DNA of 64,000 nucleotides. Origin: a bacterium. GTDB lineage: Bacteria > Patescibacteriota > Minisyncoccia > Phycocordibacterales > CALRBL01. The notes below the pieces were generated by a model. The model saw only the letters and a program-made list of their open reading frames with translations. It did no database searches and was not told the DNA's origin. The stretch covers positions 4,468 to 68,467 of the forward strand of contig JAIYEG010000006.1 of assembly GCA_027487075.1 (NCBI GenBank), given 5' to 3'. Shown piece by piece: positions 3,016-59,468 of the stretch (its first letter is position 1; every line of letters begins with the position of its first letter). The position numbers and the translations under genes are program-made.

Positions 3016-3574
3016 GTGCTTGCTTGATCATGTCTTCAGTGCCAAGGTCTTTGTCCATTTTTTTCACCGCATCTCGTGCCTCACGTTCATCAAAACCGAG
3101 TGACTTAAGTGCTTCGACAGCAAGTGCTTCTTTGGTGACGTCTTTTCCTGAAGGGGTAGGACCGTAATCGTCTTTGAATTTTCCTTTGAGCTCAAGTACG
3201 ATTTTTTCCGCACTCTTTTTGCCAATCCCTGACACTTTAGTGAGGTATGAAATGTCTTCACTTACAATAGCTTCACGGAGCGTGTGTGCTGATGCGAGGC
3301 CGAGGATGCCAAGAGCAGACTTTGGTCCAATCCCTGAGACGGTGATGAGAAGTTCGAACATGTCGAGAGTTTCTTGGTTTTTGAAGCCGTAGAGGTCGAG
3401 AGCAGTTTCGCGTACGGCAAGATAGGTGAAAAGGGAAACCTGTTGACCAATATTGCCCGCGAGAGCTTCGAGACACTCGCCTCCAACATAGACTTTATAG
3501 CCAACACCCGCTACGTCGATAATAGCTGCCTTGAGGTCCAGATGGATAAGTGTCCCAGAAATGCGTGAAATCAT
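2993..3574 (-). CDS. ruvA: Holliday junction branch-migration protein RuvA
   Basis: MISRISGTL...VGGVGYKV...TVSGIGPKSALGIL...VSGIGKKSAEKIVLELKGK; start trimmed to the ATG at 3574. Confidence 0.9.
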   Translation of the reverse strand: MISRISGTLIHLDLKAAIIDVAGVGYKVYVGGECLEALAGNIGQQVSLFTYLAVRETALDLYGFKNQETLDMFELLITVSGIGPKSALGILGLASAHTLREAIVSEDISYLTKVSGIGKKSAEKIVLELKGKFKDDYGPTPSGKDVTKEALAVEALKSLGFDEREARDAVKKMDKDLGTEDMIKQALKEIGRS

Positions 3575-3614
3575 TGTGGTCACATTATAGCGTAAAAGAC
3601 CAAGTAGTAAGAGG

Positions 3615-3729
3615 GCTTCTCTGAGATGTTCTTCCGTAAGGAGACTTGCGAGGCTCGACGGAGTGAGCACGAGGAATTTTCTAGTAAGAAAATATCCGTG
3701 CTCCTGGAGGAAGAATATATCAGAGAAGC
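3615..3729. repeat. structured intergenic repeat element, copy A (conserved core inside a locus-specific inverted repeat)
   Basis: Arms GCTTCTCTGAGATGTTCTTCC / GGAAGAATATATCAGAGAAGC flank the core CGACGGAGTGAGCACGAGGAATTTTCTAGTAAGAAAATATCCGTGCTCCTGG. Core is near-identical to the copy at 37468-37535 (opposite strand) and homologous to copies at 11266, 29229, 31342 and 45130. Confidence 0.8.
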
Positions 3730-3775
3730 TGGTTAATACTTTGCATTCTTATGCTTTATGTGGTAATTTCTCCCT

Positions 3776-4039
3776 ATGCCAATTACATCATCAGCTAAAA
3801 AGGCGCTCCGATCTTCAAAGCGCAAGCGAATCGTCAATCTCGCTGCCAAGGAAAAGTATGCAAAGGCAGTGAAGACGGTGAAAAAGCTTGTCGTAGCAAA
3901 GACCAAGGAGGGAACAAAAGAAGCGCTTTCTCTTGCCTATAAGGCACTCGATAAAGCAGCTAAGAAGGGGGTGATCAAGAAGAACACCGCTTCTCGCCGA
4001 AAGGCTCGCCTTGCTAAAGCAATCAAGAAGCTTAGCTAA
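3776..4039 (+). CDS. rpsT: 30S ribosomal protein S20
   Basis: Lys/Ala-rich 87 aa protein MPITSSAKKALRSSKRKR...ARLAKAIKKLS. Confidence 0.9.
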   Translation: MPITSSAKKALRSSKRKRIVNLAAKEKYAKAVKTVKKLVVAKTKEGTKEALSLAYKALDKAAKKGVIKKNTASRRKARLAKAIKKLS

Positions 4040-4056
4040 TACGTGCATCGCACATC

Positions 4057-4092
4057 AAAAAACCGCCCTTAGCATAGCTTCGGCGGTTTTTT
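4057..4092. terminator. Rho-independent terminator (bidirectional position)
   Basis: AAAAAACCGCCC...GGCGGTTTTTT hairpin plus U-tract between convergent rpsT and the 4114-4719 ORF. Confidence 0.7.
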
Positions 4093-4113
4093 GATGTTGA
4101 GTTGAGATTTTCT

Positions 4114-4719: not shown

Positions 4720-4809
4720 CCATCGCTCCTTACAGGAGCAGTACCCCGATTGGATACTCTGCTTCGGCTCGAATACTCGCCTCGCATAGTATGCTCAATT
4801 TATTCGCTG

Positions 4810-5438: not shown

Positions 5439-6227
5439 ATGAAAAAAATAATTCTAGGAGCACTATTCACACTCCTTGGTATAGGCTCTTTGTTTGTATA
5501 TGAGCGTAATAAAGAACTACTCTATAGTAGTAAGAGTAAGGAATATTTTTTTCATGAGCAAATCAAGAGAGAGGATAATGTTTTTTATCTGGTGTTTAAC
5601 AGTATGGGTCAGCACATTGCTTCAGCTCTTGGTATCCACAAAGAAGTCATTCTTCTCCCTATACCGTTCAAGAGGCAAGAGAATGCACTTACCTGTGAAA
5701 TAGCTTCTTTGCGTATGGCTTTGAGTTATGTTGGTGTTGAGGTAACCGAAAAAGAATTGGTAGATCGCATAGCATATAGCGCTACTACCTCGAAAAGTCA
5801 TTTAAATGTGTGGGGGGATCCTCAGAAAGGTTTTGTGGGAGATGTGAATGGTTCAGTGATGCTCGGTACGGGATACGGAGTATATAATAAGCCCATAAGA
5901 GATCTAGCCCTTAACTATCATCATGCAGAAATAATGGAAGAGCCGACCATTGAAAACCTGCTTACGAATACACAACAAGGAAGACCTGTGATCGTGTGGG
6001 GTATCAGTAAAAGTAGAACTCCTATTTACTGGTTTTCGTACGAAGGTGATCTTATAAAAGCATGGAGAGGAGAGCATGCTCGGGTTGTTATGGGGTATGT
6101 GGGAACTATGACAAATCCAACCCACATTGTTTTAATGGATCCTTTGTATGGAAAAGTAAAAATAAACACTGCTCAATTTATTGAGGACTGGGCAAGATTA
6201 GATTATATGGCGGTGGTGGTGGGGTAA
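5439..6227 (+). CDS. C39-like (papain-fold) cysteine peptidase domain protein with N-terminal TM/signal
   Basis: QENALTCEIASLRMALSYVG (catalytic Cys context) and GEHARVVMGYVG (His) as in Peptidase_C39_2 / YvpB-like proteins. Confidence 0.6.
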   Translation: MKKIILGALFTLLGIGSLFVYERNKELLYSSKSKEYFFHEQIKREDNVFYLVFNSMGQHIASALGIHKEVILLPIPFKRQENALTCEIASLRMALSYVGVEVTEKELVDRIAYSATTSKSHLNVWGDPQKGFVGDVNGSVMLGTGYGVYNKPIRDLALNYHHAEIMEEPTIENLLTNTQQGRPVIVWGISKSRTPIYWFSYEGDLIKAWRGEHARVVMGYVGTMTNPTHIVLMDPLYGKVKINTAQFIEDWARLDYMAVVVG

Positions 6228-6231
6228 CGCT

Positions 6232-6855
6232 TTAATTTTTGTAAGAACTCAAAATAAGCGCTTTATCTTTTTTATATTTTTCAACAAGTGCGAGCTCTGT
6301 TGCGGTGAGAGGGATTGCCTCACCATAGCAAGAGACATGTTCAGGTAAGTCTCCAAGATTGTTGAATGCATCAGCTAGTGCGGTAAATGTAGAACCCTCT
6401 AAGCCTTCAGAGACAATGTCTGCAATTCGTTCAGGATAGTTTGTGGTAACCCACTCACAGAATTCTTTGCTCAACATTTTCTTTATCACAATTCCTTTGG
6501 GTACATTCTCATCAAGAAGGGGGTCAGATATGCGGACTTCACACAGTGCGCTGAGTGTATCGCTGGGATTGAGTGAGTCTGAAAGATTGGTAATTGCCCA
6601 GACGAGATGTCTATTAAGCTCTTCCATCTTTCGTTCGCCTTCGAGGGTGAGCGTGTGTTCTTTTGTGGGAGGTTCGATTCTGTCGTATACGGCGTATTCT
6701 TCGGTGAGAGGTCTTGTCGAAAGTTTACCATCTTGTGGAGGAGTAAGTTTTTCAGCAAGCACTCCCGCGCCAAACGCGAGAGCAGCAACCATGCCGTAAT
6801 TAAGACGACTCACGATCTCTCTGAGTTGTTCTTGATGTTTTTTAAATGATTCCAT
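6232..6855 (-). CDS. hypothetical protein
   Basis: 207 aa ORF with coherent codon usage and no recognisable motif. Confidence 0.5.
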   Translation of the reverse strand: MESFKKHQEQLREIVSRLNYGMVAALAFGAGVLAEKLTPPQDGKLSTRPLTEEYAVYDRIEPPTKEHTLTLEGERKMEELNRHLVWAITNLSDSLNPSDTLSALCEVRISDPLLDENVPKGIVIKKMLSKEFCEWVTTNYPERIADIVSEGLEGSTFTALADAFNNLGDLPEHVSCYGEAIPLTATELALVEKYKKDKALILSSYKN

Positions 6856-6979
6856 ATATATGTGTATAAAGTTATATACGGAATAATATCATGAAGAGAG
6901 AGGTGGAGAGAATATTTGTGTTGAAGGAATGGTTAAATGTTATTGAAAAAGTAAAACCAGAATGAATGTGGCAATATAA

Positions 6980-7815: not shown

Positions 7816-8211
7816 ATGAAATATCTCGGTATTGATTTTGGTGACAAACACGTAGGAGTTGCTGTCTCAAACGATGGTGGCACAATGGCGTTCCCGCTCA
7901 CGACGCTTGATGGTGGGACAGGGCTTATAGATGAGGTCTCAAAGCTCATCGAAGAAAAGGGGGTTCAAGCGGTGGTCATCGGGGAATCAAAAGATTTTCA
8001 GGGACAGGACAATAAAATTATGAAGAAAGCTCGCGTATTTGCGGAGGAGCTAGCTCAGAAAACTTCAAAAAAGGTGCCTGTCCCCATTTACTTTGAACCC
8101 GAGTTTATGACTTCAGTAGAGGCGCGACTCATTCAGGGAGGGGGAGAAAAGACGCATGCCTCGGCAGCGGCACTCATCCTCAAGAGTTATCTCGACAGAA
8201 AAAACAATTAA
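7816..8211 (+). CDS. ruvX: Holliday junction resolvase-like protein RuvX/YqgF
   Basis: MKYLGIDFGDKHVGVAVSN... diagnostic YqgF N-terminus. Confidence 0.85.
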   Translation: MKYLGIDFGDKHVGVAVSNDGGTMAFPLTTLDGGTGLIDEVSKLIEEKGVQAVVIGESKDFQGQDNKIMKKARVFAEELAQKTSKKVPVPIYFEPEFMTSVEARLIQGGGEKTHASAAALILKSYLDRKNN

Positions 8212-8226
8212 TATATAAATAGACAC

Positions 8227-8556
8227 ATGATCACTATCGACGACTTTAAAAAAGTAGAAATTAAAATTGGCACCGTAGTAAGTGCAGAAAAGGTAGAAGG
8301 GGCTGACAAGCTCATTCGTTGTATGGTGGACTTCGGCGAAGAGGCTCCACGACAGATTCTTTCGGGTATCGCTATGCATTTTCCAGATCCCTCAGTGCTC
8401 GTGGGAAAAAGTTTTCCTTATGTCACCAATCTCGAACCTCGCACGATCCGTGGTTTTGAAAGCAACGGCATGATCATGGCAGCATCAGATAGCGATGGTG
8501 GTTTTGCACTCCTTTCTCCCACTGCTCCCATCAAACCCGGAACCCTCCTCTCGTAG
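8227..8556 (+). CDS. tRNA-binding domain protein (CsaA/Trbp111-like OB fold)
   Basis: FKKVEIKIGTVVSAEKVEGADKLIRCMVDFGEE resembles the MetRS C-terminal / EMAP tRNA-binding domain. Confidence 0.65.
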   Translation: MITIDDFKKVEIKIGTVVSAEKVEGADKLIRCMVDFGEEAPRQILSGIAMHFPDPSVLVGKSFPYVTNLEPRTIRGFESNGMIMAASDSDGGFALLSPTAPIKPGTLLS

Positions 8557-8714
8557 GCAACAGATGGATTGTCAGCATGAAAGAGAAAGAAATACCTAAA
8601 GCAATGTGTTGCGGAGTGCTGGGCACGAGCATAGCAAATTTTTACCAGAAAATTATGCGCGCATTGCGTAGGTATTTTCTTTTTCTCTTTCATGCTGTGA
8701 TATAATTTCTTTCG

Positions 8715-9785
8715 ATGAACGATTACAACTTTATCGCTCGCCACTTTCCCGCACCAGACGTACTCGATGTGCCGTATGTTGGTATCGACGTGTCTCCATC
8801 CGCTGTGCGTCTCATGGAAATCATCGATGTGCCATCACGCAAAGTTGGTGTGTATGCCGAAGCTCCGCTCTCGACACCGTTTCTCATCACAGAAGGCGAC
8901 AATAAAGAAGTAAAAGATATTCTCAAAAAGTGGAAAAAAGATTTTAAACTCCAATACATCAAAGCTTCTATTCCTGAAGAAAAAGCGTACTTGTTTGATA
9001 CCGAAATAGAATTTGGAGATGAAGAAAAAATGCGCACTGCTATCGAATTTTCTCTCGAAGAGCACGTTCCTCTCAAGGGTTCTGAGGTGATTTTCGATTA
9101 TCGTCTTGTGGGGGAGAGTCCTAAAAAAGGGTTTATTAATGTTGCGGTGACGGTGCTTCCTAGTGAAGTAGTGTATCGCTACGCTGATCTTTTTGAGGAG
9201 TGCGAGCTTACCCCGATCTCATTTCTTATCGAAGCCCAAGCGGTGTCACGCGCGCTCATTAGGCGAGGAGATAAAGGAACGTATCTTATTGTGAACATTC
9301 GTCACACTCGCACAGGCGTGTTTATTGTAAGTAATGGGGCGGTGCAGTTTACCTCGACACTTCAACTTGGTTCATATGATTTTACGAAGAGTATTATGGC
9401 TAAGTTGGGAGTAAACGATGAAGATGCAAAACAAAAGAAACATACGCTTGGTTTTGTAAAGTCGAAGGAAAATGATGTGCTTGATGCAATGCTTCCAACC
9501 GCACTCGAATTTAAAAAAGAAATTGAGAAGGTGTATATCTACTGGAGTAAGCACAAAAGTGCAACAGGTGAGGCAACACCGATTCAAAAAGTAATTGTGT
9601 CAGGAAGTGAGGCAATTACCCCAGGATTTAAAGAGTTTGCGAGTCAAATGCTGAAAGTGGAAGTTGAGATAGCGAATGTATGGAACAATCTCGCTTCGTT
9701 TGATGAATATGTCCCACCGCTTCCCTTAGCACAAGCACTTAATTTTGGAGCTGCTATCGGGCTCGCCCTTCCAGAAAAAGAATAA
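8715..9785 (+). CDS. pilM: type IV pilus assembly ATPase-fold protein PilM-like
   Basis: Actin-like fold, VGIDVSPSAVRLMEI N-terminus; followed by PilN- and PilO-like genes. Confidence 0.65.
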   Translation: MNDYNFIARHFPAPDVLDVPYVGIDVSPSAVRLMEIIDVPSRKVGVYAEAPLSTPFLITEGDNKEVKDILKKWKKDFKLQYIKASIPEEKAYLFDTEIEFGDEEKMRTAIEFSLEEHVPLKGSEVIFDYRLVGESPKKGFINVAVTVLPSEVVYRYADLFEECELTPISFLIEAQAVSRALIRRGDKGTYLIVNIRHTRTGVFIVSNGAVQFTSTLQLGSYDFTKSIMAKLGVNDEDAKQKKHTLGFVKSKENDVLDAMLPTALEFKKEIEKVYIYWSKHKSATGEATPIQKVIVSGSEAITPGFKEFASQMLKVEVEIANVWNNLASFDEYVPPLPLAQALNFGAAIGLALPEKE

Positions 9786-11149: not shown

Positions 11150-11221
11150 GCCCCTGTAGTTCAATGGATAGAACTGCGGACTTCTAAGCCGTCAATCTAG
11201 GTTCGATTCCTAGCGGGGGCA
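11150..11221 (+). tRNA. tRNA-Arg (anticodon TCT)
   Basis: GCCCCTGTAGTTCAATGGATAGAACTGCGGACTTCTAAGCCGTCAATCTAGGTTCGATTCCTAGCGGGGGCA; loop CTTCTAA. Confidence 0.8.
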
Positions 11222-11373
11222 CAAGCCAAGAAATCCAAACCGCTTTGGATTTCGCTGGACTTGTGCCGGCCGGAGCGCGACGGCGCGAGGTGGGGTCGCG
11301 GACATTTTTAGTAAAAAATGATCCGTGACCACAAGTTAAATCTTCAAACAGGGTACTGATCCTGTAAGGATCG
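11222..11373. repeat. composite structured repeat, copy F: tRNA-3' hairpin, GCGCGACGGCGCGAG core, A/T hairpin and UGUAA-loop hairpin
   Basis: GGCACAAGCC...GGACTTGTGCC hairpin; GGAGCGCGACGGCGCGAGG; ACATTTTTAGTAAAAAATGA; CAAACAGGGTACTGATCCTGTAAGGATCG. Confidence 0.75.
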
Positions 11374-11426
11374 ATATATTGATAAAAAACATCTTTTACG
11401 CTACAGTGAGTCGGTCAGTCTAAGAA

Positions 11427-11499
11427 GGGCGATTAGCTCAGTTGGTAGAGCAACCCGTTTACACCGGGAAGGTCATAGGTTCGAGTCCTGTATCGCCCA
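11427..11499 (+). tRNA. tRNA-Val (anticodon TAC)
   Basis: GGGCGATTAGCTCAGTTGGTAGAGCAACCCGTTTACACCGGGAAGGTCATAGGTTCGAGTCCTGTATCGCCCA. Confidence 0.85.
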
Positions 11500-11605
11500 C
11501 AAATGAACAGCGAGAGCGTGGAATTTTTTTTCAAACGAAGAAGAGAATTTTTATGAAATTCAAGAAGAATGTCGCAGATTTTATACCGAGCTGACAGAAT
11601 CGTTT

Positions 11606-12540: not shown

Positions 12541-12576
12541 ACCACTGGTTCGCTGGGGGGCCAGCGAACCAGTGGT
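12541..12576. other. perfect 16-bp hairpin (second tandem stem-loop)
   Basis: ACCACTGGTTCGCTGG-GGGG-CCAGCGAACCAGTGGT. Confidence 0.7.
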
Positions 12577-14096: not shown

Positions 14097-14546
14097 ATGA
14101 AGGACTTTCTGCTTCTCGCAGGACTTCTTCTCGCTCTCATCCTTGGTCTTATCATTCTCAATAAAAACTCGTATCGAGGAGTTGATACGGTCTTTCCTCG
14201 TCCCATTGAAGAAGTAGAAAACTCTCGTGATGATAAAACAATCGTCCTTAAGCTCCGAGAGCAAGTGACGTTTAATGATGTGATAATCGAACCGTGGGCA
14301 GTCACTGAAGATAGTCGATGTCCTCAAGATGTACAGTGTATCCAAGCGGGGCGGGTCAAGGTAGCGATTAATGTGCTGGATAAGAACAGCATATTCGTTC
14401 GCACTGCCGAGCTTGAACTTGGTGTGCCCCTCACCGTGAATGATGTCACCATCATTCTTACAAAAGTCACCCCCAATCCCATTTCAACCGCAAAAATTAT
14501 CGACGATCAATACCGATTCACCTTTGATTTCGTTGCGGTGAAATAA
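14097..14546 (+). CDS. hypothetical secreted/membrane-anchored protein
   Basis: N-terminal hydrophobic helix, no recognisable motif. Confidence 0.5.
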   Translation: MKDFLLLAGLLLALILGLIILNKNSYRGVDTVFPRPIEEVENSRDDKTIVLKLREQVTFNDVIIEPWAVTEDSRCPQDVQCIQAGRVKVAINVLDKNSIFVRTAELELGVPLTVNDVTIILTKVTPNPISTAKIIDDQYRFTFDFVAVK

Positions 14547-14671: not shown

Positions 14672-14715
14672 CAAACAAAAGAAATCCCGCAAGGGATTTT
14701 TTTGTTTGTGCGCAG
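14665..14715 (+). terminator. nested terminator: ~17-bp outer stem reusing the tRNA-Leu 3' acceptor strand, with inner AAATCCC-GCAA-GGGATTT hairpin and U-tract
   Basis: CTGCGCACAAACAAAAG ... TTTTGTTTGTGCGCAG are exact reverse complements. Confidence 0.7.
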
Positions 14716-14793: not shown

Positions 14794-14822
14794 CCAAACA
14801 GGGTACAGGTCCTGTAAGGACC
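14794..14822 (+). repeat. tRNA-downstream UGUAA-loop hairpin motif
   Basis: CCAAACAGGGTACAGGTCCTGTAAGGACC; same motif at 11346-11373 and 4725-4753 (minus strand). Confidence 0.7.
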
Positions 14823-22442: not shown

Positions 22443-22479
22443 AAAACTCCGGACAGGCTACGCCTCTCCGGAGTTTTTT
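22443..22479. terminator. bidirectional Rho-independent terminator
   Basis: AAAACTCCGGA...TCCGGAGTTTTTT between convergent genes. Confidence 0.75.
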
Positions 22480-24111: not shown

Positions 24112-24150
24112 AAAGAGCGGGACCTGCGATATGCGGGTCCCGCTCTTCTG
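24112..24150. terminator. bidirectional Rho-independent terminator
   Basis: AAGAGCGGGACC-TGCGATATGC-GGGTCCCGCTCTT. Confidence 0.75.
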
Positions 24151-29188: not shown

Positions 29189-29202
29189 ATAGAGGAATAA
29201 AA

Positions 29203-29307
29203 CTTACAAAACCTTTTCGGAAGGAGGCTCGCAGAGCGCGACGGCGCGAGCGTGAAAAATTTTCTAGCAAGAAAATATCTGTACTCCTGAAGAAAAGGTT
29301 TTGTGAA
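29203..29307. repeat. structured intergenic repeat element, copy B
   Basis: Arms CTTACAAAACCTTTTCGGAAGG / CCTGAAGAAAAGGTTTTGTGAA; core GCAGAGCGCGACGGCGCGAGCGTGAAAAATTTTCTAGCAAGAAAATATCTGTACTCC. Confidence 0.8.
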
Positions 29308-29521
29308 TTTTATTTGCTATACTCATTTCATGAACACCGAAGAACGCCTTCTCGCGCTGGAACAAAAGATTGATGCAATGTCAGTAGTGGTAAAAAAGCT
29401 GTACCGTGTTTTTTTGATTACCGTGATTATAAGCGTAGTTGCGTTTGTGCTTCCTTTGATCGGGCTCCTGTTTGCGATTCCATCATTTTTATCTACCTAT
29501 GCAAGTATTTTGGGACAGTAG
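29303..29521 (+). CDS. small hypothetical membrane protein
   Basis: 72 aa with one TM helix; its 5' end lies in repeat copy B, so likely starts at the internal Met (MNTEERL). Confidence 0.4.
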   Translation: MNFICYTHFMNTEERLLALEQKIDAMSVVVKKLYRVFLITVIISVVAFVLPLIGLLFAIPSFLSTYASILGQ

Positions 29522-31310: not shown

Positions 31311-31423
31311 CTAGCACAGAATTCTTACTCGGAGAAAACATTGCGCAAGCGCGACGGCGCGAGCATAAGAATTTTCTACCAAGAAAATATCTGTGTTTTC
31401 GAAGAGTAGAGATTTTGTGCTAG
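31311..31423. repeat. structured intergenic repeat element, copy C (exemplar), filling the whole argS-ileS gap
   Basis: Arms CTAGCACAGAATTCTTACTCGGAGAAAACAT / CTGTGTTTTCGAAGAGTAGAGATTTTGTGCTAG; core TTGCGCAAGCGCGACGGCGCGAGCATAAGAATTTTCTACCAAGAAAATATC. Confidence 0.85.
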
Positions 31424-31432
31424 GATAACCCC

Positions 31433-34400
31433 ATGTACAGCCCTCAAAGAGAGACAGAGATCCTCGATTTCTGGAAGAAACACGACATTTTTAATAAGAG
31501 CCTTGAACGGACGAAGGAGGGAGAACCTTATGTGTTTTACGATGGACCGCCTTTCGCGACGGGGCTTCCGCACGTGGGGCACGTCCTTCCATCGACGATG
31601 AAAGACCTCATGCCACGTTATCAGACCATGCGCGGTCGCTATGTGGCACGCCGATGGGGATGGGATTGTCACGGACTTCCGGTAGAAAACCTTGTCGAGA
31701 AAGAGCTTGGACTCAAAACCAAGAAAGATATTCTTGATCTTGGGATCGAGAAGTTCAACACCGCTGCCAAAAACAGCGTGCTTCGCTATGCCGATCAGTG
31801 GCGCGAGCTGGTACCACGTTTTGGACGATGGGTGGATATGGATCATGACTACCGCACTATGGATGCTGACTACACCAGCTCGGTGTGGAGTGTCTTTTCA
31901 CGCCTTAACGACAAGAAACTTGTCTACGAAGGTTTCAAAGTAATGTATGTCTGTCCTCGTTGCGAAACTAGCCTCTCAAACTTCGAAGTGAATCAGGGAT
32001 ACAAAGACATCACTGATATTTCGGTGTATGTGAAATTCGCGAAGGTGAATGCTGAAGCTGACGCGAATGCTTCAAAAGAACATCTTCTTGCGTGGACCAC
32101 AACGCCATGGACTCTTCCTGGCAATATGGCGCTTGCCGTCGGACGCGATATGGAGTATGTGAAGGTTGAAATCACGGGAGAAGAAGGTGTGGTGGTGCTT
32201 GCAACGTCACGCGTAGAGCACGTACTCAAAGGAAAAGAATATAAGGTCGTAGCAGAGATGAAGGGAAGTGAACTCGTCGGCACTTCATATGAACCTGTGT
32301 TTGATACCTACAAAAATGCTGACCTTCAAAACAAGGCGAATGCATGGAAAGTATACGCAGCTGATTTTGTAACAGATGGTGATGGAACCGGTATCGTGCA
32401 TATTGCTCCTGGATTTGGAGATGATGACCTCAGGCTTTCTCAGGCGGAGCAGATTCCATTTGTGCAGCATGTCGGAATGAATGGCATCATCAAAGATGAA
32501 GTTACTGAATTTGCAGGTCTTCATGCAAAACCAAAAGATGAAAAGAAAGATGAGCATCAAGCGACCGATATTGAAGTGATCAAGTATCTCGCAAAGAAAG
32601 GTGCACTCTTCTCAAAAGAAAAAATTGTCCACTCATATCCGCACTGTTGGCGATGCAGTACACCACTTCTTAACTTCGCTACTACCTCGTGGTTCGTGAA
32701 GGTGACTGATCTTAAAGACAAACTCGTTGCAGAGAATAATAAGATTCACTGGGTGCCAGAAGCGGTAGGTGCAAACCGCTTTGGAAAGTGGCTCGAAGGT
32801 GCTCGCGATTGGGCGGTGTCACGAGCCCGTTTTTGGGGTGCACCGATTCCCGTATGGCGAAGTGCTGACGGAAAAACTATAGAGTGCGTGAGCTCCCTTG
32901 ATGATTTGAAGAATAAGATTCGACGCAACACTTATATCGCCATGCGTCATGGTGAGTCTGAACACAATGTAAAAGGCGTGCTTGATTCATCACTCAAGAG
33001 TACCTCGCATCTCACCGACAAAGGAAAAGAAGAAGTAAAAGCAACGGCCGCTGAAATCGGCATGGTTGATGTGATATATATTTCGCCACTGCTTCGCACG
33101 AAAGAAACGGCAAAGATTGTTGAAACAACGATCGGTTATACAGGAAAGGTGATAGTTGATCCGCGACTTGCAGAGTTTGATACTGGCGACTTCGACAAGA
33201 AGCCTCGTGAAGCATTCTTTGCCTACCTCGATACACATCGAACAGGCTCATGGCTTGATATGAAGATTCCAGGTGGGGAAGGATACAAGGATGTACGCAA
33301 TCGCGTATCGGAATTTTTGTATGACATCGATGCACAGCATGAAGGTAAGCGCATCCTCATCATCACTCATGAAGCGCTTGTAAAAATGATCGAAGCGGTA
33401 TCGCTCGGTGGTACTGCAAAAGATGTGACTCATGTATGGAATCAGGGTGGGGTAGCGACTGCGGATACACGCACTATCGACTTTGCCGCTCTTCCAAAAA
33501 ATGCTGACCACGAGCTTGATCTGCATCGTCCCTATATCGACGAGATCACTTGGAACGGCTTGAAGCGAGTTCCTGATGTGTTTGATTGCTGGTTTGAATC
33601 GGGCTCAATGCCATTTGCCTCGCATCAGACCAATTACCCTGCAGAGTTTATTGCGGAAGGTCTCGATCAGACGCGCGGATGGTTCTACTCAATGCTGGTG
33701 CTCGGTGTTGCGCTCGAAGATGCATCTCCCTACAAAAACGTGGTAGTGAATGGGCTGATCCTTGCAGAAGACGGCAAGAAAATGTCAAAGAGTCTTAACA
33801 ATTATCCGCCTCTTGATAAGATTCTCGAGAAGTATGGAGTCGATTCACTGCGCTACTTCCTCCTCTCATCACCTTCAGTGAAGTCTGAAGACACCGCATT
33901 TTCTGAGAAGAGCCTGGATGAAGTGATCAAGAAGCATTTCAATCGTCTGTACAATGTCATCTCTTTGTATGACACCTTCGACTCAACGGATCTTCCGACG
34001 GTGCAATCAGAGCATGTACTCGATCAGTGGATTGTGGCACTGCTTCGCAAGACCGCTGAAACTATCACCTATCACCTTGATCGTTACGAATTCGATAAGG
34101 CAACCAAGCCACTCGGTGACTTCATCGAAGATCTTTCGGTGTGGTATATCCGTCGTTCACGCGATCGCTTTAAGAGTGATGATGTGATAGATAAAGCGGC
34201 AGCACTTGCGACGACGCGCTATGTGCTTATTGAGTTCGCAAAACTCGCGGCGCCATTTGTGCCATTCATTGCCGAAGATGTGTATCTTCATATGACGAAG
34301 GGAATGACTGATGCACAAGAAAGTGTGCATCTTGAAAGCTGGCCAACACTCGGCGCTCCCGATCAACTCGCACTCGCAAAGATGGCAGAGACACGTAAGA

Positions 34401-34861
34401 TTGTGTCGATGGCGCTTGAGGCTCGTGCAAAGCGCACCATCAAAGTACGCCAGCCACTCTCACGACTTATGCTTCGCACCGATGAATACGATATTGCCGA
34501 TGATAGTGCTTATGCCGAACTCATCAAAGATGAAGTGAATGTAAAAGAAGTGATTCTTGATAGTGCGATCGAAGATGAGGTGATGCTCGATATCACGCTT
34601 ACCCCAGAACTCATTCAGGAAGGAGTGGTGCGTGAGCTCATGCGTTTCGTGCAGGATATGCGCAAGAACGCAGGACTTTCTCCAAAAGATACGATTGTAC
34701 TCACGGTACATGCTGGTGAAAACGAAAAAGCAATCATCGAACGTTTTAAAGAAGAGCTCATGAAGACAGCGCGTATTGCAGATATTGTGTACGCTCACAC
34801 TGATGGCGAAAAACTTACCGTCGAAGACTACCACTTCACACTTTCATTGAAGACGTTGTAA
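31433..34861 (+). CDS. ileS: isoleucyl-tRNA synthetase carrying an inserted histidine-phosphatase-family domain
   Basis: HVGHVLPSTMKD (HIGH), CPRCETSLS zinc knuckle, WTTTPWTLPGN editing motif, HIAPGFGDDD, YPHCWRCSTPL, KMSKSLNN; 1142 aa single ORF. Confidence 0.9.
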   Translation: MYSPQRETEILDFWKKHDIFNKSLERTKEGEPYVFYDGPPFATGLPHVGHVLPSTMKDLMPRYQTMRGRYVARRWGWDCHGLPVENLVEKELGLKTKKDILDLGIEKFNTAAKNSVLRYADQWRELVPRFGRWVDMDHDYRTMDADYTSSVWSVFSRLNDKKLVYEGFKVMYVCPRCETSLSNFEVNQGYKDITDISVYVKFAKVNAEADANASKEHLLAWTTTPWTLPGNMALAVGRDMEYVKVEITGEEGVVVLATSRVEHVLKGKEYKVVAEMKGSELVGTSYEPVFDTYKNADLQNKANAWKVYAADFVTDGDGTGIVHIAPGFGDDDLRLSQAEQIPFVQHVGMNGIIKDEVTEFAGLHAKPKDEKKDEHQATDIEVIKYLAKKGALFSKEKIVHSYPHCWRCSTPLLNFATTSWFVKVTDLKDKLVAENNKIHWVPEAVGANRFGKWLEGARDWAVSRARFWGAPIPVWRSADGKTIECVSSLDDLKNKIRRNTYIAMRHGESEHNVKGVLDSSLKSTSHLTDKGKEEVKATAAEIGMVDVIYISPLLRTKETAKIVETTIGYTGKVIVDPRLAEFDTGDFDKKPREAFFAYLDTHRTGSWLDMKIPGGEGYKDVRNRVSEFLYDIDAQHEGKRILIITHEALVKMIEAVSLGGTAKDVTHVWNQGGVATADTRTIDFAALPKNADHELDLHRPYIDEITWNGLKRVPDVFDCWFESGSMPFASHQTNYPAEFIAEGLDQTRGWFYSMLVLGVALEDASPYKNVVVNGLILAEDGKKMSKSLNNYPPLDKILEKYGVDSLRYFLLSSPSVKSEDTAFSEKSLDEVIKKHFNRLYNVISLYDTFDSTDLPTVQSEHVLDQWIVALLRKTAETITYHLDRYEFDKATKPLGDFIEDLSVWYIRRSRDRFKSDDVIDKAAALATTRYVLIEFAKLAAPFVPFIAEDVYLHMTKGMTDAQESVHLESWPTLGAPDQLALAKMAETRKIVSMALEARAKRTIKVRQPLSRLMLRTDEYDIADDSAYAELIKDEVNVKEVILDSAIEDEVMLDITLTPELIQEGVVRELMRFVQDMRKNAGLSPKDTIVLTVHAGENEKAIIERFKEELMKTARIADIVYAHTDGEKLTVEDYHFTLSLKTL
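32920..33500 (+). other. in-frame histidine phosphatase (PGM/CobC/SixA superfamily) domain inserted in IleRS between PIPVW and DVFDCWFESG
   Basis: YIAMRHGESEHN (RHG catalytic His), ISPLLRTKETAKIV, IPGGEGYKDVRNRV, ILIITHEALVKMI (second His) in canonical order. Confidence 0.8.
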
Positions 34862-35475: not shown

Positions 35476-37422
35476 ATGAATGATCTTGAGCGACAACGTG
35501 AAGAAGAGGAGGAGCGAAAAAGTCGTATCGACTCTGCGCGCGACAATTTGTATCGCCCAGGAGGTCCAAGTGTGATTCATCGTGAATCAGATCCGCGATT
35601 GCCGCAGGAAGAAGAGGCGCTCCCATCTCAAACATTCGCTCCACGTGTACCGCGCACCTTCGATGAACAAAAGTTTGCCTCAAAAGCAACTACGATCTTC
35701 CGTCGCATGTTCTTGGGAGCTCTGGTGTTTTTCGTAATTGCAATTGGCGTAGCAGGGTACATGTATTACTACGGCAACACCACTATCTCCGCAAAAAATA
35801 TTGAAGTCGATATTGTTGCACCACCGTCTGTGCCTTCAAGTGACACCTTTTCGTATGATGTGAGTATTCAAAATGGCAACAATGGTGATCTTCTTAACAC
35901 CGCACTCGTCATTGATTACCCAGAGGGCACGCGTAGCGTCGAAGATAATACGAAGCCGTTGGTGAGTGAGCGTATTGAGCTCGGTACCTTGTCGAAGGGG
36001 GCAGTAGTACGCCGCACATTGTCTGCGCGATTCTTTGGAGAAGAGAATGCGCAAAAAGATGTGCAGGTCCGAATCGAATATCAGGTGCCTGGATCTAATG
36101 GGCAGTTTAGTAAAGATGCCGGATTTAGTGTGTTCTTGAGACTCGCCCCTGTCGTGCTCACCATCGATGCGCTCAAAGAAATCAATAACAACCAAGAGGT
36201 GACATTGGTTGCTAAAGTGGTGTCAAACTCAAACAATACCTTAAGCAATCTCGCTCTCAATGTGACATATCCCTTCGGTTTTACGTACAAGAGCTCGAAT
36301 CTCGAAGTTGATGGACGAAAAGGAGAATTTCCACTCGGTGAACTCAAGCCAAATGAGACAAAGACGGTTGAGATTGTGGGAGATATCAGTGGGCAAAGCA
36401 ATGAAGATAAAGTATTTAAATTTAACGTAGGTACGGCAAGTAATGCAGATTCAACACGCGTGAGCACCTCACTTGCAATGCATGTGCATGACATGGTGAT
36501 TCGTGGAGATTTCTTGGCAACGTCGATCACCTTCGCAGATCGTAAGGATTATGTGATTGTTGGTGATAAGCTTCGAGGGACTATACAATGGCAGAATACG
36601 CTCAATGTGCCAGTCAACGATGCTAAGTTCACGCTTAAGATTGACGGGGACTTGATTGATAAAGATAATATCCGCGCAACTCAGGGATATTACGACTCAA
36701 ATCGCTCACTTATTGAATGGAATAAGAATATTGATCCTCGACTTGAAGAAATAAAGCCTGGTGAAAAGGGAGAATTCGCATTCGCTGTTGATCTTAAAGG
36801 TTTCGACGAAGCTCTTGCGGAACGGATTAGTAATCCAAAAATTAATTTGAAGTTCGATGTGCATGCGCGACGTATCAATGAGAATGATGTGACAGAAGAC
36901 ATTGAATCATCATTTGAGAGATCAGTGCCCATGGTGTCAGATGTGGTACTTACAGGCAAGACACTTTATAGCAGTGGTCCCTTGAAAAACAGTGGCCCTA
37001 TACCTCCAAAGGTTGAAACCAAGACCACGTATACCGTAGCACTCACCCTTACCAACACGGTTAATGAAGTATCAAATGGAGAGCTCACCCTTACGCTTCC
37101 CAACTATGTAACCTATGAAGGCGAGGTGACGCCCTCAAGTGAACGTATTTTATGGAATAGTAGCACCAAACAGCTTCGTTGGAGTGTGGGGTCATTGCCC
37201 GTGCGCACAGGATTTGGCACCGCGCCACGCACACTCAACTTTAAAGTGAGTGTATTGCCAAGTCGAAGTCAAATTGGAAAGACGTTGAATCTGGTGAATA
37301 ATGTTAGCTTTGTAGGACGTGATAATTTCGCAAATGCAGAGGTGAAGGCATCAGGAAATATTGTGACAACTTCGGTGCAAGATCCCGGAGCTGGATTTGG
37401 CACAGGGCAAGTGGTACAGTAA
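35476..37422 (+). CDS. large membrane-anchored surface protein with repeated beta-rich (Ig/CARDB-like) domains
   Basis: Charged N-terminus, one TM helix, then ~540 aa of Thr/Ser/Asn/Val-rich repeats. Confidence 0.55.
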   Translation: MNDLERQREEEEERKSRIDSARDNLYRPGGPSVIHRESDPRLPQEEEALPSQTFAPRVPRTFDEQKFASKATTIFRRMFLGALVFFVIAIGVAGYMYYYGNTTISAKNIEVDIVAPPSVPSSDTFSYDVSIQNGNNGDLLNTALVIDYPEGTRSVEDNTKPLVSERIELGTLSKGAVVRRTLSARFFGEENAQKDVQVRIEYQVPGSNGQFSKDAGFSVFLRLAPVVLTIDALKEINNNQEVTLVAKVVSNSNNTLSNLALNVTYPFGFTYKSSNLEVDGRKGEFPLGELKPNETKTVEIVGDISGQSNEDKVFKFNVGTASNADSTRVSTSLAMHVHDMVIRGDFLATSITFADRKDYVIVGDKLRGTIQWQNTLNVPVNDAKFTLKIDGDLIDKDNIRATQGYYDSNRSLIEWNKNIDPRLEEIKPGEKGEFAFAVDLKGFDEALAERISNPKINLKFDVHARRINENDVTEDIESSFERSVPMVSDVVLTGKTLYSSGPLKNSGPIPPKVETKTTYTVALTLTNTVNEVSNGELTLTLPNYVTYEGEVTPSSERILWNSSTKQLRWSVGSLPVRTGFGTAPRTLNFKVSVLPSRSQIGKTLNLVNNVSFVGRDNFANAEVKASGNIVTTSVQDPGAGFGTGQVVQ

Positions 37423-37608
37423 AGGGGACAGGCACCTTTTTTCGTGAAGCAGAGCACCACATAATCGTCAGTGTCCTTACAGGAGCACGGATATTTTCTT
37501 ACTAGAAAATTCCTCGTGCTCGCTCCGTCGAAGCCCCACAAGGCTCCTTTCAGGACACCGCCGATTATGCGTTTCTCTGTCTTTAAAAAGGTGCCTGCCC
37601 CCTTAATT
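37422..37608. repeat. structured intergenic repeat element, copy E (core on minus strand)
   Basis: Arms AAGGGGACAGGCACCTTTTTT / AAAAAGGTGCCTGCCCCCTT; reverse-complement core CGACGGAGCGAGCACGAGGAATTTTCTAGTAAGAAAATATCCGTGCTCCTGTAAGGAC is near-identical to copy A. Confidence 0.85.
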
Positions 37609-39170: not shown

Positions 39171-39200
39171 AAAACACCCCGGAGGTCCGGGGTGTTTTGG
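39171..39200. terminator. bidirectional Rho-independent terminator
   Basis: AAAACACCCCGGAGGTCCGGGGTGTTTT. Confidence 0.75.
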
Positions 39201-44905: not shown

Positions 44906-45106
44906 ATGAAAAAATGCTACTTCTCACAGAATAATATCAAGCATGTAGATTACAAGGATACGGACTTGCTCAAAAAGTTCCTTAATCCTCATGCTCGTCT
45001 TCTTTCAAGCAAGAAGACTGGTGTGAATGCTAAGCACCAGCGCAAGCTTGCTAACGCTGTAAAGCGCGCTCGCTTCATGGCTCTCATTCCGTATATTAGT
45101 CGATAA
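44906..45106 (+). CDS. rpsR: 30S ribosomal protein S18
   Basis: VDYKDTDLLKKFLNPHARLLSSKKTGVNAKHQRKLANAVKRARFMALIPY. Confidence 0.9.
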   Translation: MKKCYFSQNNIKHVDYKDTDLLKKFLNPHARLLSSKKTGVNAKHQRKLANAVKRARFMALIPYISR

Positions 45107-45220
45107 ACTAAACAAAATACCCCGAAAGAAACATTGCGCAGCCTTGCGGCGAGCATAGGAATTTTTCAGAAGAAAAATATCCGTGTTTCTGAAGGGGTAT
45201 TTTGTTTATTTATCGCTGAC
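45099..45220. repeat. structured intergenic repeat element, copy D, spanning the convergent rpsR-efp gap
   Basis: Arms GTCGATAAACTAAACAAAATACCCC / GGGGTATTTTGTTTATTTATCG; core CATTGCGCAGCCTTGCGGCGAGCATAGGAATTTTTCAGAAGAAAAATATCCGTGTTTC; left arm overlaps the rpsR stop. Confidence 0.8.
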
Positions 45221-45222
45221 GT

Positions 45223-45786
45223 TTAGTTTACGCGTTCTACGTATTCGCCAGTTTCGGTATTGATACGCACTATGTCACCTTCTTTGATAAACATTGGAGT
45301 GGTGACTGTTGCACCAGTTTCGAGGGTGATGAGCTTGTTACCACCTTTTGCGGTATCTCCGCGTACGGCGTCAGGAGCCTCAGTAACCTTGAGTTCAACC
45401 TTGATAGGGAGCTTCACACCGAAAATTTTATCCTCGAAGAGAAGGGCGTCAACGATTGAGTTAGTCTTGATGAACTTGATAGCCACACCAAGCACTGACT
45501 CGTCGAGCTTGAAGCGATTTGAAGGATCTTTTTCGTCACAGAACCAGTACTCACCTTTGTTGAGATAGAGATACTTTACTTTTTTGGTGGTGATTTCGGC
45601 TTCTTCAGCCTTATCTGATACATGGAAAGAGTGTTCGACGATGCGGCCCGAGATGAGATTGCGAAGCTTGGTAGCATTTACCGGCTTTCGCTGTTGCTTG
45701 CGGAATACGTGTGATGCAAGTACTTCATAAGGCTCGTTTTCGAAGATAATATATTTTCGTAGGGTAATTTCATTGTATTCAAGCAT
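45223..45786 (-). CDS. efp: elongation factor P
   Basis: 187 aa, KPGKGxA-equivalent loop RKQQRKPVNA, three OB-like domains. Confidence 0.85.
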   Translation of the reverse strand: MLEYNEITLRKYIIFENEPYEVLASHVFRKQQRKPVNATKLRNLISGRIVEHSFHVSDKAEEAEITTKKVKYLYLNKGEYWFCDEKDPSNRFKLDESVLGVAIKFIKTNSIVDALLFEDKIFGVKLPIKVELKVTEAPDAVRGDTAKGGNKLITLETGATVTTPMFIKEGDIVRINTETGEYVERVN

Positions 45787-53242: not shown

Positions 53243-53315
53243 TTCTCTAGCGTAAGCTTTAGAAGGTAGATTCAACAAAAACACCCCGAAAGGGGTGTTT
53301 TTGTTTGCCTAATTT

Positions 53316-59428: not shown

Positions 59429-59468
59429 TAAAACCCTCTTGGAACCATGGTTCCAAGAGGGTTTTACC
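59429..59468 (+). terminator. strong hairpin terminator (17-bp perfect stem)
   Basis: TAAAACCCTCTTGGAACC-ATG-GTTCCAAGAGGGTTTTA. Confidence 0.75.

Follow-up and report, generated by a model that had tools for sequence, protein, structure and literature searches.

Among the small, non-autonomous repeats of bacterial genomes, MITEs, ERIC, BOX and the Correia/NEMIS elements form hairpins, occur in multiple copies and are co-transcribed with neighbouring genes; ERIC is conserved across genera, and MITEs carry conserved terminal inverted repeats as well as direct target-site duplications. A small mobile unit of two adjacent hairpins, defined by its fold and found in spacers as well as in genes, is also represented by the double-hairpin elements of fungal mitochondria. 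REPs are extragenic palindromes that lie mostly downstream of genes and between co-directional or convergent ORFs, show no target duplication, occasionally form head-to-head doublets or reside within genes, and are believed to act in the form of a folded single strand (PMC3733652). The Rickettsia palindromic elements (RPEs), in turn, are multi-copy palindromes located between genes and, unusually often and in frame, within unrelated housekeeping genes, where they are translated as inserts (PMC10969869).

The repeat considered here was studied in a 64-kb stretch of patescibacterial DNA, referred to as the window. A covariance model built from the window copies and their homologues, and run against the window with filters off, identifies seven copies (Table 1) and not a lone pair; repeat finding gave related copies near 29.2, 31.3 and 45.1 kb, and the next-best model matches in the window, with at most 15 bits, are plain palindromes. 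Each copy forms one long hairpin of 75-190 nt (fold z -6.4 to -9.5) with arms of 8 to about 60 nt, which differ in sequence in every window copy while complementarity is kept. The tip is a conserved three-way junction of about 57 nt with the consensus A-CUUGCGAG-CGC-GACG-GCG-CGAGCACG-A-GGAAUUUUUC-AGCA-GAAAAAU-A-UCC-GUG, comprising a GC-rich hairpin (P2) with a tandem G.A/A.G step in its stem and an AU-rich hairpin of 10 bp (P3) with a bulged A and a 4-nt loop. In many copies a further tandem-G.A internal loop lies 5-6 bp below the junction, and in the window copies this extra loop has the form GAA/GAA or a near variant (GGA/GAA, GUAA/UGGA). Apart from these copies, about 30 nt within the coding sequence of ORF 7816-8211 (8063-8090 on the plus strand, CTTCAAAAAAGGTGCCTGTCCCCATTTACT) nearly repeat the outermost 3' arm of copy E (37418-37449 on the minus strand).

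Table 1. Copies of the element in the window, copies inside genes and doublets at loci of other genomes (L numbers), and associated features
Feature	Position or locus	Strand	Model match	Fold	Context
Copy A	3614-3730	+	3631-3713, 86.5 bits, E 4.5e-21; core ~3644-3700	RNA fold -58.3 kcal/mol, z -6.4	
Divergent copy, arms ~31 bp	8575-8695	+	8593-8674, 45.9 bits, E 5.9e-10		tRNA-binding-domain gene 8227-8556; pilM 8715-9785 (Pfam)
Divergent copy, short arms	11258-11337	+	40.5 bits, E 1.8e-8		spacer of tRNA-Arg (11150-11222) and tRNA-Val (11427-11500)
Copy B	29196-29314	+	29214-29296, 76.5 bits	z -6.6	dUTPase (stop 29188) / small ORF, ArgRS
Copy C	31311-31423	+	31326-31408, 71.2 bits	z -7.6	ArgRS (stop 31310) / IleRS (start 31433)
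Copy E, longest hairpin, arms ~60 nt	37421-37604	-	37473-37556, 82.8 bits	-102.6 kcal/mol, z -9.5	fills whole gap between DUF11-like gene (stop 37422) and GlyRS (start 37613)
Copy F	45101-45215	+	45119-45198, 63.0 bits	z -9.5	end of short plus-strand ORF (stop 45105, taken as S18 by synteny) / end of EF-P (45223-45786, minus strand)
Intragenic, GlmM/PGM	L089, L162, L161				
Intragenic, PheT	L033, L104, L041				
Intragenic, Dus	L073, L036				
Intragenic, TsaD	L091				
Intragenic, SecA	L005				
Intragenic, TGT	L057				
Doublet	L059 6326-6407 / 6504-6585	- / +			
Doublet	L054 6681-6763 / 6824-6876	- / +			
Doublet	L067 1223-1306 / 1381-1465	- / +			
Doublet	L161 14118-14199 / 14250-14332	- / +			
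Doublet, same orientation	L105 1531-1613 / 1651-1732	+ / +			
-10-like boxes	window 29320-29333, 31416-31435, 3764-3778; also L086, L099, L015, L117				
Plain gene-end hairpins	4053-4096, 12544-12573, 14672-14712, 22445-22475, 24114-24146, 39171-39198, 53274-53305, 59433-59462				

With respect to the fold, 92.5% of cells are paired in a MAFFT alignment of 72 copies, which is independent of the covariance model, compared to 71% in shuffles and 37-56% in slid controls. For 98 copies aligned to the model, an alignment that leans towards the latter, the corresponding values are 93.7% as against 69% and 44-57%, and changes on both sides are seen at 30 of the 31 pairs. P3 covaries also in pattern-free copies from the flanks (GCAAAAAUCC/GGAUUUUAUGC, GCAAAAACCC/GGGUUUUAUGU). 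By the covariation test applied to structured non-coding RNAs, the fold is conserved. A pseudoknot between the loop of the GC-rich hairpin (ACGG) and CCGU was considered and dropped, the loop variants GUCG, GGCG and GACUG being uncompensated. Comparison by eye with the cores of two known small ribozymes, hammerhead and twister, gave no match, in agreement with Rfam: a search of the whole window against Rfam 15 at gathering scores yielded no match on any copy, and at E<=10 copies A, B, C and that at 11258 had chance-level matches only, far below gathering scores. A description of the hairpin repeat could likewise not be found in the literature, searched by topic and by sequence.

A second, unrelated motif was seen at 11345-11375(+), 14795-14822(+) and 4722-4752(-), about 60-125 nt downstream of tRNA-Arg, tRNA-Leu and tRNA-Arg, respectively. 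Here CCAAWCRGGGUAC precedes a hairpin whose loop is UGUAA and whose stem covaries (GAUCC/GGAUC, GGUCC/GGACC, GCUCC/GGAGC); the motif has no Rfam match at E<=10. As to the ribosomal RNA genes, the 23S gene at 59813-62497 matches its model end to end (2685 nt for 2925 positions) and no 16S or 5S gene was found anywhere in the window; the rRNA genes thus appear unlinked.

The original prediction was concerned with copies A and E, which were reported as near-identical, inverted and 34 kb apart. This is indeed the case: an ungapped match of 52 nt connects 3655-3706(+) with 37480-37531(-), 51 of the 52 bases being alike (98%), a 39-mer of copy A (3665-3703) has an exact counterpart at 37483-37521(-), as compared to 0 matches in 100 shuffles, and the likeness is about 70 nt long once one indel is allowed. 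The string quoted for copy A is present on the plus strand, with its end coordinate given one base too high (3656-3707 instead of 3708), and the span flagged at the time (3615-3729) corresponds to the entire hairpin. In the pairwise alignment the likeness is not confined to the A/T hairpin and covers the GC-rich hairpin and the junction as well; the rarer AGUA loop and the GGAG/CUCC inner pairs are also common to both copies. However, across the full 57-nt core copies A and E are only 89.7% identical, whereas the core of copy A is 93% and 91% identical to copies from other genomes (L076 and L005, respectively), and the remaining window copies are 50-81% alike to it. Core similarity is thus as high between species as within the source genome, and the arms of A and E have no sequence in common. 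Since the core of A is nearer to copies of other genomes, since the arms are unlike and since true recent duplicates share the whole hairpin (see below), the likeness of A and E is, as judged from these sequence comparisons, due to constraint on the tip and not to recent duplication. From the alternatives originally offered, i.e. recent duplication or transposition, or strong constraint, it is therefore the latter that applies to this pair; for the family as a whole, gain and loss, whole-hairpin duplicates and intragenic copies speak in favour of transposition, though not of a recent event from A to E.

The same pair had been noted for a peptide, STRNFLVRKYPCS, in the open reading frames 3663-3872(+) and 37269-37541(-). 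Both frames exist, and both overlap real genes, the first one rpsT (3776-4039) out of frame, and the second one the 3' end of the gene at 35476-37422 on the other strand. The peptide had been considered spurious, which holds for the window, given the 1-nt indels between copies (GAGCAU-AGG versus GAGCACGAGG) and the reading of copies elsewhere in at least four frames and in both orientations. Elsewhere, however, housekeeping proteins do contain the translated element as an insert. A bias towards synonymous substitutions, which would have pointed to peptide coding, was not found, the changes being compensatory for base pairs.

In particular, 11 of about 103 copies lie in frame within housekeeping genes (Table 1), as revealed by an ORF search and subsequent detection of Pfam domains on both sides of the insert. 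In GlmM the insert is located in the linker between domains I and II, in sense orientation at L089 and L162 (85.9 bits for the latter) and in antisense orientation at L161 (61 bits), and it is absent from the homologue at L163 and from several others of 452-457 aa. Covariation in the GC hairpin is also seen among the three orthologous copies in PheT and might reflect in situ selection instead of mobility. Altogether, translation of the intragenic copies involves both orientations and no fewer than four frames, with LGSATARARGIFQQKNIR, LRARRSEHEEFSSKKIS, GYFSAEKFLVL and GTDIFLLENSS among the frames read through, and the use of different frames therefore excludes a conserved peptide.

Gain and loss of copies can be followed in four relatives in which the gene order dUTPase/ArgRS-IleRS-RecO-DUF11-like-GlyRS...S18...EF-P is kept and whose ArgRS and GlyRS are 63-73% and 68-75% identical, respectively, to those of the window. 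Over the 16 kb of synteny between ArgRS and EF-P, four copies (B, C, E and F) are present in the window, as compared to a single, divergent one (at site C in L159) in 68 kb from the four relatives searched with filters off. None of the four relatives has a gap at site E, where the flanking genes abut or overlap, and the whole 184-nt hairpin is therefore an insertion. The copy at site B is absent from the orthologous site of the relatives, with an empty site in L122, and site C lacks a copy in L122/L158 and L157, has a divergent one in L124/L159 and is occupied by another gene between ArgRS and IleRS in L125/L160. The IleRS gene next to site C (31433-34861) itself harbours a histidine-phosphatase domain (His_Phos_1) inserted in the catalytic domain (residues 503-663), an architecture seen in all four relatives.

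The unit that is copied is evident from two recent pairs within one genome bin (L061:3341/L061:5320 and L061:6393/L062:6856), in which the likeness extends over the complete hairpin down to its base and stops there. The arms of one of the recent duplicate pairs differ only by a coupled change, T>C on one side and A>G at the position paired with it (GGTAT/ATACC versus GGTAC/GTACC), which hints at hairpin-templated correction or strong selection. A fresh insertion, i.e. the same species with and without the element, was not seen among the compared loci, which counts against a selfish nature of the repeat.

In the nearest relative (L122), sites B and C contain short plain hairpins only, from which the idea arose that the element inserts into pre-existing terminator loops; as a general rule this was ruled out by site E and the intragenic copies, where there was no prior hairpin, and by the recent duplicates, which carry their own arms. 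Most gene ends of the source genome have unusually long perfect hairpins (Table 1) with stems of 10-22 bp and loops of 4-5 nt, which are often flanked on both sides by A- and T-runs and resemble the arms of the element without its tip. In L158 a perfect 14-bp palindrome (GGTGACCATTGTGC...GCACAATGGTCACC; 5808-5839 and 2863-2885) lies in frame inside IleRS and repeats a plain hairpin just upstream of the same gene, so that simple palindromes, too, seem to enter genes.

Most intergenic copies begin about 5-40 nt from a stop codon. As for genes that terminate at the hairpin, 35 copies have such a gene on the opposite strand and 15 on the same strand, and a further 12 have one on both sides; the mRNA would thus usually carry the antisense core. 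Across loci, the C-rich strand is the sense strand of the element in 64 of 98 cases (64:34), in the window six of the seven copies are on the G-rich strand, and copies point both ways within a single 8-kb locus; a replication-strand rule was ruled out on account of this mere 2:1 bias and of the mixed orientations in one locus. On the sense strand of the core, G.U pairs exceed A.C mismatches by 47:9 in P1 under a symmetric rule (p = 2.6e-7) and by 17:2 in the outer arms, the ratio being weaker (14:6) where a convergent gene ends nearby. This excess implies that one particular strand folds, whatever the direction in which the neighbours are transcribed.

With regard to a transcript of its own, no -10 box at a fixed distance was found at the copies, T-tracts were neither enriched nor asymmetric on either side in 92 copies, and a scan for intrinsic terminators at A and E gave none. 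Copy A does lie, as stated originally, between the divergent genes ruvA (start ~3574-3577, minus strand) and rpsT (3776, plus strand). However, the suggestion that it could serve both as a shared regulatory site received no support, as other copies follow stop codons, separate two tRNA genes or lie within coding sequences, and no consensus for a promoter or terminator coincides with the element. At some genes in the window and elsewhere (Table 1), a -10-like box (TATACT, TAGGAT, TAATTT, TATAAT) is located 6-7 nt upstream of the ATG and a Shine-Dalgarno sequence is missing; judged from these sequences, this suggests that leaderless mRNAs may be common in these bacteria.

To assess its breadth, the element was searched for by a degenerate pattern in one genome per species, which gave at least 120 loci with about 71 true copies; these are a biased sample with respect to P3, of which the pattern fixes 20 bases, whereas the pattern CTTGSGAGNNNGNCGNNNCGAGCWCGAGG would allow this AU-rich hairpin to be sampled without ascertainment bias. 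By the covariance model, at least about 100 copies are present in genome bins of Patescibacteria, mostly Paceibacterota, including Yonath-, Wildermuth-, Vogel-, Taylor- and Nomurabacteria, bins named 'Paceibacterota' and some labelled Saccharibacteria. Among the matches listed, all true copies are in Patescibacteria bins and those in other phyla are chance matches, and of 31 pattern matches in IMG/VR viral contigs none passed the covariance model. Copy scores form a continuum between about 100 and about 30 bits, the pattern of a birth-and-death family, and copy density differs strongly between related genomes. Close doublets, 40-100 nt apart and mostly in opposite orientation, are frequent, as with REPs (Table 1).

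A gene that might mobilise the element did not emerge from its neighbourhood: clustering of neighbouring ORFs, which in loci of other genomes are crude ORF calls, showed no transposase, reverse transcriptase or other candidate gene enriched beside the copies, the top neighbours being IleRS, PheT, HisRS and FtsK. Direct repeats at the boundaries match the permuted control save for a small excess at >=6 nt (10 of 94), a target-site duplication is absent from the two recent duplicate pairs, and no defined target was found. RAYT-like Y1 genes are present in L124 and L065. In L065, from a Nomurabacteria bin, ORF 3237-3917 encodes a Y1 (RAYT-like) transposase of 226 aa and is flanked by the identical plain hairpin TTCGGAAGTCCGACTTCCGA at 3196-3216 and 3926-3946, a classic REP-RAYT arrangement; downstream of the related gene in L124 there is a hairpin that likewise has GTCCGAC at its centre. 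Within 3 kb of the L065 gene, the one inspected, there is no copy of the element, and a link to RAYT was ruled out at this locus, the Y1 gene being flanked by a different hairpin.

Among the systems outlined at the beginning, the element is comparable to RPEs, which are likewise palindromic repeats (~100-150 nt) present in multiple copies and without a gene of their own in small genomes of host-dependent bacteria. The 98 aligned copies have no coding capacity of their own, and the inserts in housekeeping genes (GlmM, PheT, Dus, TsaD, SecA and TGT) match the hallmark of RPEs (PMC10969869), a likeness in described features. However, RPEs are conserved over their whole length, have one conserved peptide per family and are confined to Rickettsia, whereas here only the apical ~57 nt are conserved, the arms are copy-specific, no single peptide is retained and many candidate orders of Paceibacteria are involved. 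With REPs and REPINs the element has in common its extragenic location, the doublets, some intragenic copies, the lack of target duplication and a presumed action as a folded single strand. Yet REPs are only 20-40 bp in size, are tagged by GTAG or CGTC, have a conserved stem and as a rule do not extend beyond a species or genus, in contrast to an element whose stem is variable and whose conserved part is an apical three-way junction, and a cognate RAYT gene flanked by the element was not found, with one gene (L065) inspected. MITEs and the ERIC, BOX and Correia/NEMIS repeats resemble the element in small size, hairpin formation, multiple copies and presumed co-transcription with neighbours. 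Unlike in MITEs, terminal inverted repeats are not conserved, as the arms of the seven window copies and of most others are unlike, and direct target-site duplications were not found. As regards a derivative of the IS200/IS605 type, the lack of target-site duplications and the strand-specific fold would both fit; two subterminal hairpins are missing, the strand bias is 2:1 and no link to a Y1 gene was found. The fungal mitochondrial elements, finally, belong to another genetic system and lack a long variable outer stem, so that the resemblance is a lead only.

On balance, we consider it fairly probable that the repeat is a family of palindromic mobile elements, selfish and non-autonomous, which are dispersed in Patescibacteria (class Paceibacteria). 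The unit that is copied would be the whole hairpin, and after landing its arms would lose all likeness to the parent while retaining complementarity, in contrast to the tip of about 57 nt, which would retain both sequence and fold. The tip might then be the handle for a putative conserved trans-acting factor, which would recognise one single strand (DNA or RNA) of the element and bring about its propagation, and surviving copies would be those at sites where a compact hairpin is tolerated, i.e. just past stop codons, in tRNA spacers and in frame in putative surface linkers of housekeeping proteins. A core that is about 80-93% identical across many candidate orders is unusual for a selfish repeat, since such repeats are usually specific to a species or genus, and could point to a host function. 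The main competing explanation is a structured RNA module beneficial to the host, the hairpin being transcribed with, or divergently from, its neighbours and the tip binding a protein or acting as a ribozyme, with 3'-end protection, RNase III processing, insulation of closely spaced genes or the release of a small, abundant RNA as conceivable roles. It is kept alive by the exceptional conservation of the core throughout the class and by the tandem sheared G.A motifs, which are typical of RNA-protein sites, and is also in line with covariation as strong as in bona fide RNAs, with the prevalence of G.U over A.C, with the copy in a tRNA spacer and with intergenic copies near stop codons, where the source genome otherwise has long plain hairpins. 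However, the antisense bias with respect to adjoining genes, the absence of a fixed -10 box and of U-tract asymmetry, positions that are not conserved among relatives and the 11 copies within coding sequences in either orientation weaken it to such an extent that we regard it as rather unlikely.

An even more doubtful candidate is a DNA-level host element, in which the tip would serve replication priming, recombination, chromosome organisation or DNA uptake, either as a binding site for a protein or as a cruciform: the orientation of copies does not depend on transcription, there is some bias for the C-rich strand across loci (and, in the window, for the G-rich one), and long perfect inverted repeats could extrude as cruciforms, but compensatory changes in all helices together with the G.U bias point to a folded single strand and not to recognition of a duplex, and both orientations in one 8-kb locus, the free gain and loss of copies and their highly variable density in related genomes do not fit either. 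That A and E are a recent duplicate pair and A a regulatory site common to ruvA and rpsT appears very improbable in spite of their near-identity, the shared rarer loop and inner pairs and the position of A between divergent gene starts, because the full core of A is closer to copies of other species, true recent duplicates share their arms, no promoter consensus overlaps copy A and the element occurs in unrelated contexts, including the inside of genes. A small conserved protein gene, for which the same peptide from open frames of both copies might argue, can for practical purposes be dismissed in view of the indels, the compensatory substitutions, the overlaps with real genes and the other frames and strand used by intragenic copies. 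Going beyond the reading as a selfish mobile element, it might be speculated, with considerable reservation, that the three-way junction represents a functional nucleic-acid module of a new class, being a ribozyme or else the site recognised by a mobility system based on single-stranded RNA or DNA, and that it has spread through a whole class of the candidate phyla radiation and is actively kept folded even inside essential coding sequences. Such a module would account for the 80-93% identity retained by non-orthologous copies of distant genomes, and also for the coupled paired changes in otherwise identical recent duplicates.

The genomes of Patescibacteria are tiny and thought to be streamlined, and yet about 1.3% of the window consists of a repeat that also interrupts genes of the secA, pheT and glmM type. 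For the annotation of such genomes, the covariance model can be used to account for about 10% of the intergenic spacers and helps to avoid false small-ORF calls like STRNFLVRKYPCS. Moreover, the element provides a second, independent case of palindromes of the Rickettsia type that become part of essential proteins by translation, from a lineage which is unrelated but likewise has a small genome and is presumed to depend on a host, and its defined and strongly covarying fold makes the search for a mobilising or binding factor directly testable.
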